Assembly (NCBI RefSeq): GCF_048403405.1
Contig: NZ_CP183129.1
Strand: one strand, 5' to 3'
Source: Escherichia coli
GTDB lineage: Bacteria > Pseudomonadota > Gammaproteobacteria > Enterobacterales > Enterobacteriaceae
DNA: 64,000 nucleotides
Part shown: in pieces, positions 49,201 through 52,200 of the stretch
Layout: each line of letters opens with the position of its first letter
How positions within the stretch are numbered: position 1 is the first letter of the stretch
Program-made: the position numbers

Positions 49201-52200
49201 CCACTGCGCCATTATTGATGAGCTGCATGCACATAAAACCCGCGACGTGTGGGACGTTCTGGAAACGGCAACCGGTGCCCGTCTGCAGTCCCTGTTATTT
49301 GGTATCACCACGGCTGGCTTTAACAAGGAAGGGATTTGTTACGAGCAGCGTGATTACGCCATCAAGGTATTGCGAGGCTATAACAGCGACGTGGAGGGCG
49401 CTGTAAAAGACGACTCTTACTTTGCGATCATTTACACGCTCGATGAGGGAGATGATCCGTTTGATGAAACGGTCTGGCAGAAAGCGAATCCTGGCCTGGG
49501 CATCTGTAAACGCTGGGATGATCTGCGTCGTCTGGCGAAAAAAGCGAAGGAGCAGGTCTCTGCGCGGGTGAATTTTTTTACCAAACACATGAATGTGTGG
49601 GTCACTGCCGAATCTGCCTGGATGGATATGATTAAGTGGGAGAAGTGCGAATACATTGCTCCACAACATGAGCTGAAAACATATCCCATGTGGGTCGGCG
49701 TCGACCTTGCTCATAAGATTGATATCTGTGCGGCGGCAAAACTCTGGCGAACCGATAACGGACATGTTCATGCTGATTTTAAATTCTGGCTTCCGGAAGG
49801 ACGGCTGGAACGATGCTCGCGGCAGCAGGCAGAACTTTACCGGAAGTGGGCGGAGATGGATAAGCTCATCCTGACGGATGGTGATGTTATCGATCATGCT
49901 CAGATAAAAAGTGACTTACTGGAATGGATTGGCGGTGAAAACCTCAGGGAACTGGGATTTGACCCGTGGAGCGCAATGCAGTTCAGTCTGGCACTGGCTG
50001 AAGAAGGGATACCGCTGGTGGAGGTTCCGCAGACGGTCCGCAATCTGTCAGAGGCCATGAAGGAAACGGAATCACTGGTTTATGCCGGGCGTTTCCATCA
50101 CAGCAATCATCCGGTCATGAACTGGATGATGTCTAACGTTACTGTAAAACCGGACAAAAACGACAACATCTTCCCGAATAAATCCACGCCGGAAGCCAAA
50201 ATCGACGGCCCTGTTGCGCTTTTTACAGCCATGAGCCGCTTTCTGGTAAATGGCGGGGGCGTGAATGACTTTCTGTCCACGCTTGATCCTGATGAGGACC
50301 TGTTAATTCTGTGAAACAGCTTATTACTGATATGACCGGGCTGATCGGTTTCGGTCTGCTCACTGCTGGCGTTTATCTGTATGCAGGTCTGCCAGCGTCT
50401 CTGATGCTGTCTGGCTGTTTGTTGCTGCTTTATGCACTGGTGGTGTCCATGAGGAGAAAACATGCTTCTTGATGCTCTGTTTCGCAGTGAGCCTCTGGAA
50501 AATCCCTCGGTTCCGGTAACCGGAGAGGCCGCTGAGACGGATAATATTTTTGCCCGGGATGTGTATGTCAGTCCGGAAACGTCCATGAGGCTGGCTGCTG
50601 TCTATGCCTGTATTTATGTTATTTCATCCAGTGTGGCTCAGATGCCCCTGCATGTGATGCGAAAAACGAATGAGCATGTTCAGCCGGCACGCGATCACCC
50701 GTTGTTCTGGCTCGTTCATGATGAACCGAATGCCTGGCAGACCAGCTATAAGTGGCGGGAACTGAAGCAGCGTCATGTGCTGGGGTGGGGCAATGGTTAT
50801 ACGTGGGTGAAACGTAATCGTCGTGGCGAGGTTACCAGTCTTGAATGCTGTATGCCATGGGAAACCACGTTACTTAACACTGGAGGGCGTCATACCTACG
50901 GTGTGTATAACGAAGAGGGTGCATTTGCGGTAAGTCCGGACGACATGATCCATATCAGGGCGCTGGGAAACAATCAGAAAATGGGACTGAGTCCGATCAT
51001 GCAGCATGCTGAAACCATTGGTATGGGAATGAGTGGTCAGCAGTATACCAGTGCTTTTTTTAACGGTAATGCCCGTCCTGCCGGGATTATTTCTGTGAAA
51101 AATGAACTGAACGAACAGAGTTGGAGCAGGCTCAAGAATATGTGGCAGCGGGCGGTGACAGAGCTTCGCAGTCAGGAAAATAAAACCATGCTGCTGCCTG
51201 CGCAACTGGATTACCGTGCCCTGACAGTTTCTCCGGTGGATGCTCAGATCATTGATATGACCAAGCTGAACCGGTCGATGATTGCCGGAATTTTTAATGT
51301 CCCGGCGCACATGATTAATGACCTGGAAAAAGCCACATTTTCGAATATTACACAGCAGGCGATTCAGTTTGTTCGCTACACGATGATGCCCTGGGTTGCG
51401 AACTGGGAGCAGGAGCTTAACCGTCGCCTGTTTACCCGCACAGAACGGGCTGCCGGGTATTACGTTCGTTTCAACCTTACAGGATTGCTCCGCGGGACTC
51501 CACAGGAGCGTGCGCAGTTTTATCACTTTGCCATTACAGATGGCTGGATGAGCCGGAATGAAGCGAGGGCATTTGAGGACATGAACCCGGTTGATGGTCT
51601 GGATGAAATGCTGGTCAGCGTAAATGCAGCAAATCCGTTGAATGATTTTAAAGATACGAAAGGCAAAGAGGAAAAGAACGATGAATGACCGTGAAACGCG
51701 CTGTTACAGCGGGGAAGTGCGGGCAGAACAATATGATAATGCCCCGACTCATATTTTGGGGTATGGCTCGGTATTTAACAGTCGTTCAGAACCTCTGTGG
51801 GGATTTCGTGAAATCATCAAGCCGGGGGCTTTTGACGACGTGCTGAATGATGATGTACGTGGATTGTTTAATCATGATCCTAATTTCATTCTCGGACGAA
51901 GTTCTGCCGGCACGTTGTCATTATCAGTGGATGAACGTGGTTTGCGTTACGACATTGTTGCACCGGATACGCCGACGATTTGTGACCTGGTGCTGTCACC
52001 AATGTTGCGTGGTGACATTAATCAGTCCTCGTTCGCGTTTCGCGTCGCTCGTGATGGAGAGAGCTGGTATGAAGACGACGAGGGGATTGTTATCCGGGAA
52101 ATCACGCGCATTTCTCGTCTGTATGACGTCAGCCCGGTGACATATCCGGCCTATCAGGACGCAGACTCTGGTGTCCGCTCAATGAAAGCCTGGCAGGAAG

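Follow-up and report, generated by a model that had tools for sequence, protein, structure and literature searches.

This study revealed that the window, the whole 64,000-nucleotide stretch of the Escherichia coli contig NZ_CP183129.1 analysed here, very probably carries a real, selected membrane-protein gene at 50311-50472, between the genes for the large terminase (TerL) and the portal protein of a prophage. The substitution pattern of this small ORF was found to be that of a coding sequence, and its product was predicted to form a two-helix hydrophobic hairpin, in agreement with the earlier note on this DNA, which had suggested a small membrane protein at this place. The reading that we propose as a whole, namely a real gene whose product has an accessory membrane mechanism in head assembly or packaging, is plausible, although somewhat short of probable. 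The relevant features are listed here, all on the + strand.

48557-50314, + strand: large terminase TerL, 585 aa
50267-50311, + strand: C-terminal tail of TerL, DFLSTLDPDEDLLIL; the tail type co-varies with the class of small ORF and portal, independently of the TerL body
50311-50472, + strand: small ORF, 53 aa, GTG start; member of PHROG 7105, identical to WP_000811487.1; predicted two-helix inner-membrane hairpin
50311-50314, + strand: GTGA start/stop overlap of the small-ORF GTG (50311-50313) with the TerL TGA (50312-50314)
50332-50334, + strand: internal ATG, Met8 of the small ORF, not the conserved start
50332-50385, + strand: hydrophobic part of predicted helix 1, about residues 8-25, carrying the conserved G10, G13, G20, Y22 and L23
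50392-50451, + strand: hydrophobic part of predicted helix 2, about residues 28-47, carrying L31, G35 and L38
50451-50456, + strand: portal Shine-Dalgarno sequence (SD) GAGGAG, 5 nt 5' of the ATG at 50462, inside small-ORF codons 47-49 (Met-Arg-Arg)
50462-51688, + strand: portal protein, 408 aa, PF04860

The product of 50311-50472 in the ORF listing is MKQLITDMTGLIGFGLLTAGVYLYAGLPASLMLSGCLLLLYALVVSMRRKHAS. The earlier note had described a frame of 46 aa from the ATG at 50332, or of about 53 aa from an upstream GTG; this frame exists, but the ATG is not its start. ATG stands where the window has GTG in ten of the 12 diverged copies, and GTG itself is found in Salmonella phage F1055. As relatives thus carry a start codon at the GTG position, the conserved product is the one of 53 aa and not that of 46 aa. 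Residues 1-7 (MKxLIxD) are kept at the protein level, with D7 nearly invariant, and the 46-aa form was annotated in only four records. The overlap with both the terminase stop and the portal start holds for the GTG form, which shares 4 nt with the TerL stop and 11 nt with the portal start, whereas the 46-aa form, in the same frame, does not overlap the TerL stop. The offset of -4 to the TerL stop (ATGA or GTGA) was shared by all 20 class-A loci from IMG/VR, class A being the type of junction seen in the window, and by 10 of the 12 diverged copies. For annotation, whichever start codon, GTG or ATG, overlaps the TerL stop should be chosen. A purine-rich portal SD was present at the equivalent place in 11 of the 12 loci shown, and was not evident in the locus L013; given that this SD lies inside codons 47-49 of the small ORF, the basic C-terminal tail of the protein is partly dictated by it.

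With regard to coding capacity, the open frame alone is no proof of a gene, as dozens of spurious ORFs of 30-60 aa are listed in the same 7-kb stretch. A frame open by chance in the 147-nt spacer between TerL and portal, with no gene there, would be favoured by these spurious ORFs and by our own estimate that 53 codons stay open by chance in about 8% of cases, (61/64)^53. All the comparative evidence opposes it. Frame +1 stays open in 15 of 15 diverged syntenic loci, whereas every other frame meets stops in at least some of them, and it was preserved in every class-A locus examined in related phages (12 diverged copies and 20 IMG/VR loci), which bears out the gene suggested earlier. Among the 12 diverged copies, residues 1-48 show no indel. 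The divergence at codon positions 1, 2 and 3 is 0.46, 0.29 and 0.64, position 2 being the least variable, and pN was lower than pS in 66 of 66 pairs of copies, with dS saturated. Eight columns are invariant (Met1, five Gly, Tyr22 and two Leu) and three more are nearly so, while the GC content of the ORF tracks that of its flanks across 15 loci, from 0.39 to 0.61, in hosts of 39-61% GC. The ORF is still kept in L013-L015, which have a two-gene insertion after TerL (with an SD of the ORF's own in L013), and in L009, where 126 nt separate it from the portal gene. It evolves faster than the neighbouring portal, with 43-62% identity to the window protein versus 69-82% for the portal, and dN/dS reaches 0.8 in some pairs. 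As the frame is kept at saturated synonymous divergence, a chance origin is effectively refuted.

Two other readings of the same stretch were rejected. An antisense ORF of 159 aa (50107-50586) is interrupted by stops in most diverged loci, its frame being open in the window and the closest relatives only. A programmed frameshift joining the hairpin to the portal, which lies in the +1 frame, would encounter a TGA four codons 5' of the portal ATG in the portal frame, and the loci share no conserved slippery site. Separately, one fused hairpin-portal protein (P0022) was observed, which looks like the result of a rare indel.

The AF2 model of the small protein comprises a helix at residues 2-25 and a second at 28-52, with a tight turn at Gly26-Leu27 and a pLDDT of 77. 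About 75% of the protein is hydrophobic, and hydropathy places the hydrophobic part at residues 9-44. The charged ends are short, consisting of the N-terminal MKxLIxD and a C-terminal Arg/Lys tail, and the positive-inside rule suggests that both lie in the cytoplasm. The conserved positions are mainly intramembrane Gly, Tyr and Leu residues (G10, G13, G20, Y22, L23, G26, L31 and G35), a pattern that suggests packing of helices against each other, or oligomerisation, in the bilayer. When the hairpin was compared with BFVD by Foldseek, all matches had E > 1, a helical hairpin being too simple for fold search.

The small protein is already known to databases, as a hypothetical protein. The earlier view that ORFs at this position are rarely annotated proved incorrect: this one is annotated in 40 of 40 sampled RefSeq E. 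coli records and in most phage records, is covered by PHROG 7105, and is missing from the SfV record, in which the portal is over-extended. The identical protein WP_000811487.1 ("hypothetical protein"; "putative membrane protein" in AWF20095.1) occurs on at least 1000 contigs and in 893 of 5426 complete E. coli genomes. Against the PHROG 7105 HMM, it scores E = 9.4e-20, residues 1-52 aligning to positions 1-52 of the 52-position profile, and its diverged relatives score from 3e-22 to 2e-14. These relatives were reached by exhaustive HMMER and tblastn searches, the former yielding 20 cluster representatives, while a word-indexed protein search gave only near-identical E. coli proteins. All PHROG 7105 members with sufficient flanking sequence lie directly 3' of TerL and/or 5' of the portal, apart from the two intervening genes of L013-L015, and the same slot is occupied in Morganella phage IME1369_02, Edwardsiella phage EPP-1, Klebsiella phage vB_VIPKPNMC05, Salmonella phage F1055 and SfV. 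The small protein had no Pfam match at E <= 10, and searches of NCBIfam, PADLOC (no family at E <= 1) and PDB sequences gave nothing usable; the PDB matches, obtained only with the sister-family alignment, were not significant (E about 1, including glycophorin A). A literature search on small membrane proteins between TerL and portal, including Sb3, phiKO2 gp3, DUF1056 and Sfi21, found no paper on their function; Listeria TerI, which appeared in the literature, is a different gene.

Two other families occupy the same junction. PHROG 502, whose members annotated as "membrane protein" include L37 of phiP27, Sb3 of ST64B, the proteins of SfI, SfII and SfIV, gp3 of phiKO2 and those of Yersinia YeP1-3, is probably a distant homologue of PHROG 7105, judging from profile similarity. 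Both families share the slot between TerL and portal, a two-helix hydrophobic build and the glycine register GxxGx6Gx[YW]L...AG/SG. The comparison of the two by hhalign gave a probability of 86.5%, and reciprocal HMM matches were weak. As the equally hydrophobic DUF1056 gave a probability below 1% (0.7%), the signal between the two PHROGs is not merely one of composition. The small protein matches the PHROG 502 HMM at E = 1.3e-6, far more weakly than that of PHROG 7105, which would fit a shared superfamily rather than membership. PHROG 502 proteins differ in having 59-61 aa, a Pro-Pro turn and a start about 10 nt past the TerL stop without overlap; they are about 27% identical to the small protein and accompany another portal lineage (about 29% identity) and another TerL tail. 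DUF1056 (PF06341) includes orf59 of Streptococcus phage Sfi21, a protein of 59 aa that resembles the small protein in its two hydrophobic segments and its position between TerL and portal in an HK97/Sfi21-type head module. The family belongs, however, to phages of Gram-positive hosts, and no sequence relationship was detected by hmmscan or hhalign; its gathering score of 22.2 bits is not reached by the small protein, whereas Sfi21 orf59 scores 39.5 bits. On these comparisons, DUF1056 is a positional and topological analogue only and not a detectable homologue.

The small ORF is part of the late (head and packaging) operon of the prophage, and its overlaps would fit coupled translation from TerL through the small ORF to the portal, the GTGA at the TerL stop having the geometry of termination-reinitiation coupling. 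TerL tails were found to sort by junction class whatever the type of TerL body, and TerL copies that agree at 99% over residues 1-567 are followed by the other, class-B ORF and portal. Close TerL relatives therefore appear usually to have the small ORF together with the last ~16 residues of TerL and the portal as one recombination module. This linkage is broken in more distant members, and that with portal type is not absolute: in L009, an A-type ORF stands beside another TerL tail, another portal and an S49 protease. The junction lacks an ORF in 39 of 70 classifiable close TerL relatives and in HK97 itself, and the portal of L090, 47% identical to class-B portals, is likewise without one. Given these absences, the small ORF cannot be among the core components of the packaging machine.

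We propose that the small protein may be a dispensable, lineage-specific accessory of the inner membrane that acts on head assembly or packaging, a role that is possible but for which we claim only tentative confidence. The protein would be produced late, in amounts stoichiometrically linked to those of TerL and portal, and would reside in the inner membrane, where it could for example hold or organise the portal or the terminase. In HK97, the C-terminal domain of TerL sits against the portal clip (PMC10359639), and in T4 a portal initiator bound to the membrane requires a factor of viral origin (PMC9958956). The role of the small protein would be loosely analogous to this initiator, and gp40/gp20 of T4, in which a phage-encoded factor ties portal assembly to the inner membrane (PMC9958956), served as the model for it. 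The position of the T4 gp40 gene is different, however, no likeness in sequence or size is to be expected, and HK97, unlike the prophage in the window, has no small ORF. Several points count against the proposed role, among them the absence of the ORF from many TerL relatives and from HK97, the imperfect linkage with portal type, the faster evolution of the small protein than of the portal, and the part that the portal SD has in shaping its basic C-tail. The linkage could reflect hitch-hiking between two co-adapted interfaces, the model leaves almost no extramembrane surface that might bind a cytoplasmic portal or terminase, and we infer the mechanism from position and linkage only.

The small protein could instead be a host-directed membrane effector that is merely housed in the head module, acting for example in superinfection exclusion, in blocking DNA entry, in pinholin-linked timing of lysis or in late perturbation of a host membrane protein. 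This too is possible, without being likely. Conservation lying almost entirely on intramembrane Gly, Tyr and Leu would be expected if the protein packs against further helices in the membrane; the family is dispensable and patchy, as accessory genes are, and the category in which PHROG places the sister family 502 is "moron, auxiliary metabolic gene and host takeover". Nevertheless, the gene does not bear the signature of a moron, which would be a promoter or terminator of its own and an odd composition. No promoter-like or terminator-like site was found on the + strand in 49500-51000, the GC content equals that of the flanks in the 15 loci, and both ends overlap essential late genes. Without its own promoter and with these overlaps, expression from a repressed prophage is unlikely, which argues against classical superinfection exclusion. 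PADLOC gave no match, and a specific partnership with the S21 pinholin appears unlikely, as the head module recombines independently of the lysis cassettes.

It is distinctly unlikely that translation of the ORF, rather than its peptide, is what matters, the ORF then setting the ratio of portal to TerL and the peptide being a by-product. The 4-nt and 11-nt overlaps and the portal SD inside the ORF would suit such a coupling spacer, and many relatives join the TerL stop straight to the portal start. The constraint on the amino acids is nevertheless clear from the invariant columns, codon position 2, the fixed length and pN < pS, and the ORF is kept even where it is uncoupled from TerL (L013-L015) or from the portal (L009).

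A function as a holin or antiholin of the class II or pinholin type is very unlikely. In its small size, its two predicted transmembrane helices and its basic C-tail, the modelled protein resembles the S protein of phage 21 (PF04971), but it differs from class II holins and pinholin S21 in location and shares no sequence similarity with them; no Pfam holin matched, and a BLASTP comparison with the resident S21 holin showed no similarity. A complete lysis cassette is already present in the prophage at 45822-47533, 4 kb upstream of the small ORF, with its own P21-type holin (PF04971, E = 9e-36), Rz/Rz1 and a lysozyme whose N-terminus is hydrophobic and SAR-like. In the loci examined, the small ORF never adjoins an endolysin gene, except through an unrelated insertion in L013.

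In lambda, the W gene lies between the large terminase and portal genes, and its product, gpW, is a soluble virion protein. That the small protein is the functional equivalent of gpW in head-tail joining or head completion is suggested by its position, by several phage records that call PHROG 502 members "head-tail joining protein W" and by the JGI name of DUF1056 proteins, "putative head-tail joining protein", but is hardly credible, since the protein has no Pfam match (gpW models included), is hydrophobic over about 75% of its residues and, by prediction, embedded in the membrane, unlike the soluble gpW, and is followed in the same module by genes for a head-tail connector, a head closure protein and a gp10-like protein. 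For these small proteins between TerL and portal, the sequences do not support the assigned labels "head-tail joining protein W" and "scaffold protein".

Roughly every sixth complete E. coli genome carries the small ORF. Its sister families are found at this junction in Shigella serotype-converting phages, the Stx phage phiP27, Salmonella ST64B and dairy streptococcal phages. Should the protein act on portal or terminase, an involvement of the membrane in the assembly of HK97-like heads would become testable. Should its target be the host membrane, it would represent an unusual case, that of a host-directed factor built firmly into the packaging operon. A broader idea, which we regard as speculative and rather doubtful, is that PHROG 7105, PHROG 502 and DUF1056 are widespread, overlooked membrane-embedded factors of assembly or packaging that tether the portal, or the interface between TerL tail and portal, to the cytoplasmic membrane. 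In that case, head assembly or packaging would be membrane-associated in many temperate phages of the HK97/Sfi21 type, as in T4, with each small protein co-adapted to the portal lineage that goes with it.

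The analysis revealed that the junction between the large terminase (TerL) and portal genes holds a conserved late gene, physically coupled to both neighbours, whose product is predicted to be a membrane hairpin of two helices, with packing residues conserved inside the bilayer. It lies in a prophage late region with the order P21-type holin, lysozyme, Rz/Rz1, HNH endonuclease, P27-type small terminase, TerL, small ORF, portal, prohead protease and major capsid protein. The features of the junction are as follows:

48557-50314, TerL gene
50311..50472, + strand, small ORF of 53 aa with a GTG start (from the list of ORFs)
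50451-50456, portal Shine-Dalgarno sequence GAGGAG, inside the small ORF at codons 47-49 (Met-Arg-Arg)
50462-51688, portal gene

The GTG of the small ORF overlaps the TerL stop codon (cTGTGA), three bases being shared, and its final 11 nt overlap the portal ATG. Without it, this tightly packed operon would show a 147-nt gap. The + strand from 49500 to 51000 has no predicted sigma-70-like promoter or intrinsic terminator, and the small protein would be made late, roughly in step with TerL and portal.

An open frame of 53 codons is not rare, as dozens of meaningless ORFs of 30-60 aa occur in the same 7 kb; being uninformative alone, it leaves the case for a gene to comparative data. Syntenic homologues with 43-62% protein identity, gathered by tblastn, by an exhaustive HMMER search and by inspecting gene context, came from Morganella phage IME1369_02, Edwardsiella phage EPP-1, Klebsiella phage vB_VIPKPNMC05, Salmonella phage F1055, Shigella phage SfV, the bacterial chromosome CP010423.1 and several metagenomic contigs; together with four IMG/VR loci they form a set of 15. 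Frame +1 alone is free of stops in all 15 diverged loci, which together with the list of ORFs bears out the earlier note's claim of a small hydrophobic ORF at this junction. In the same loci the mean pairwise difference at codon positions 1/2/3 is 0.46/0.29/0.64, and the GC content of the ORF tracks that of the flanking DNA over a range of 0.39-0.61. In 12 diverged copies, residues 1-48 show zero indels and pN is below pS in 66/66 pairs, with synonymous sites saturated. Where estimable, dN/dS is 0.1-0.8, and the ORF evolves faster than the portal, whose identity among the same phages is 69-82%. Judged by these comparisons, the small ORF is a real gene under purifying selection of moderate strength. 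An antisense ORF of 159 aa (50107-50586, - strand), spanning the end of TerL, the small ORF and the portal start, was rejected as a gene: only the window and its nearest relatives keep it open, and stop codons interrupt it in most of the diverged loci.

With regard to the start codon, the earlier note had given a 46-aa ORF, or about 53 aa from an upstream GTG; its 46-aa version begins at 50332, which is the internal Met8. An ATG stands at the exact position of the window's GTG in 10 of the 12 diverged copies, F1055 has a GTG there, and the MKxLIxD of residues 1-7 is conserved. It follows that the gene is the 53-aa form, and the start was corrected accordingly. The suggestion of a membrane protein was supported by high hydropathy from residue 9 to 44 and by an AlphaFold2 prediction from the 15-sequence family alignment (helix 2-25, two-residue turn, helix 28-52; mean pLDDT 77). 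M1, G13, G20, Y22, L23, G26, L31 and G35 are invariant in the family and D7, G10 and L38 nearly so; conservation is therefore concentrated in small and aromatic residues within the membrane. Most members carry one Lys and one Asp at the N-terminus and usually two or three Arg/Lys at the C-terminus, so that by the positive-inside rule the topology is likely N-in/C-in with a minimal periplasmic turn. The charge of the C-terminal tail is doubly constrained, since its Arg/Gly codons double as the purine-rich Shine-Dalgarno sequence of the portal in 11 of the 12 loci shown; this is not evident in L013, one of the compared loci. No solved structure of any relative was found, and the fold search was uninformative.

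Databases already list this gene as a member of an uncharacterised family. Its exact sequence is RefSeq WP_000811487.1, a "hypothetical protein", found on at least 1000 contigs; the 46-aa version is labelled "putative membrane protein" in four records, and 893 of 5426 complete E. coli genomes carry the locus. The protein is a full-length match to PHROG 7105 (E 9e-20). The view that such ORFs are rarely annotated did not hold in this case: 40/40 E. coli records, drawn across the whole ranking, annotate a "hypothetical protein" between TerL and portal, and the ORF is also annotated in phage records such as PhiR49_2 and Evi. The SfV RefSeq record (NC_003444) is an exception, leaving an intact 53-aa homologue at 2289-2450 unannotated and starting the portal inside it, at 2392, 16 codons too early; the homologous start is a GTG at about 2440. 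No paper addressing the function of the small protein was found in the literature searched.

An IMG/VR survey queried with a TerL alignment rather than the small protein gave 80 loci, 70 of which could be assigned to three junction classes. Class A (20/70) carries the 53-aa family, its offset from the TerL stop being -4 throughout. In class B (11/70) another hydrophobic ORF, 59-61 aa long, begins about 10 nt past that stop, and class C (39/70) has no small ORF, the portal start overlapping the TerL stop in a junction that the one of HK97 resembles. The class B ORF is PHROG 502, "membrane protein" (E 6e-26), known from phiP27 L37, ST64B Sb3, SfI/SfII/SfIV, phiKO2 gp3 and Yersinia YeP1-3. The two families share the register GxxGx6Gx[YW]L...[SA]G and are probably distant homologues, as their profiles match with a probability of 86.5% (E 4.5e-6), whereas an equally small and hydrophobic DUF1056 alignment gave probabilities <1% against either. 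Streptococcus phage Sfi21 orf59 (Pfam DUF1056, 39.5 bits) likewise occupies the TerL-portal slot with two hydrophobic segments, with no detectable sequence relationship to the small protein. Given this common slot and build, a small two-helix membrane protein at the TerL-portal junction is a recurring, often absent feature of HK97/Sfi21-type head modules. Some PHROG 502 records (e.g. ON470580, ON470603, PQ793804) are labelled "head-tail joining protein W", and DUF1056 proteins "head-tail joining", "scaffold protein", "phage tail protein" or "polyferredoxin"; these functional labels are apparently positional or automatic, without sequence support.

Several known identities were rejected. A holin role is countered by the complete lysis cassette 4 kb upstream:

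45822-47533, whole cassette: P21-type (S21 pinholin-like) holin (PF04971, E 9e-36), lysozyme, Rz and Rz1-like
46536-47069, lysozyme with a hydrophobic SAR-like N-terminus
47051-47533, Rz
47286-47471, embedded Rz1-like lipoprotein ORF

The small protein matched no holin family and showed no similarity to the resident holin. Just upstream of the cassette, tRNA genes Met-CAT, Arg-TCG and Arg-TCT stand in tandem (45230-45479); tRNA genes at such a site are common to many lambdoid prophages. A classical moron does not fit an ORF that lacks promoter and terminator, has the composition of its flanks and overlaps both neighbours. The defence-family search gave no match, and a gpW-like protein is opposed by the absence of a Pfam match and by the predicted hairpin.

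The last ~16 residues of TerL fall into three discrete types by junction class, as seen by comparing the last 15 codons (window 50267-50311) across L016-L095, L003-L012 and L097: DFLSxLDPDEDLLIL in class A, LSDHLxSxGxRSL in class B and DLSGFFxNPIMVGF in class C. The tail type tracks the portal/small-ORF class in either TerL body type (that of the window or the ~39%-identical SfV/phiP27 type), and the class B tail, ORF and portal also occur with TerL copies that match the window's at 99% identity across residues 1-567. That tails match the downstream class and not the TerL body points to a breakpoint of recombination immediately before the tail and to co-adaptation between tail and portal at their interface. 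In lambda, prohead binding is specified by gpA residues at the C-terminus. The nuclease domains at the C-terminus of HK97 TerL lie directly beneath the portal clip (PMC10359639). Most simply read, TerL tail and portal constitute an interface rarely split by recombination, with the small gene inside the unit. Exceptions are L009, with an A-type ORF, a different TerL tail, a 448-aa portal and an S49 protease, and L090, whose portal is 47% identical to class B portals and which lacks the small ORF. Class A and class B portals (~29%) are no closer to each other than either is to class C or HK97.

Rearranged junctions were also observed. In E. coli 042 (NC_017626, locus 1-4515), a TerL pseudogene without its N-terminus precedes the small ORF and portal, and a second, different portal/HNH/TerS/TerL set lies upstream of it; these are adjacent or rearranged prophage remnants. 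In IMGVR_UViG_2724679239_000009, an otherwise near-identical prophage (TerL 99% identical), the portal gene (region about 5055-6340) is broken after about 49 codons by an insertion that opens with an IS-transposase-like ORF, and the small ORF upstream is intact. In three Logan contigs from distant relatives (L013-L015), TerL is followed by two unrelated inserted genes, and the small ORF is kept beside the downstream gene, in L013 with its own GAGG ribosome-binding site. The inserts (about 2691-3913 of L013) comprise an ORF of 109 aa and a gene for a 271-aa protein that matches the Pfam families Glucosaminidase and Fer2.

As to function, the small protein would insert in the inner membrane and self-associate or bind another membrane helix. 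We tentatively prefer an accessory to head assembly or packaging that is lineage-specific and dispensable, and which might bring the portal, alone or in complex with terminase, to the membrane; the sole precedent for such localisation is the membrane-bound gp20 initiator of T4 with gp40 (PMC9958956). About as likely is a host-directed membrane effector that merely resides in the head module. The linkage of TerL tail, ORF and portal fits a portal- or terminase-tied role and equally fits hitch-hiking. A pure translational-coupling spacer is improbable, given the residue-level constraint on the protein and the survival of the ORF when uncoupled. Two by-products are worth noting: the TerL-portal slot is shared by three families of tiny membrane hairpins that are unrelated or barely related, and the TerL tail tends to move together with the small ORF and the portal.
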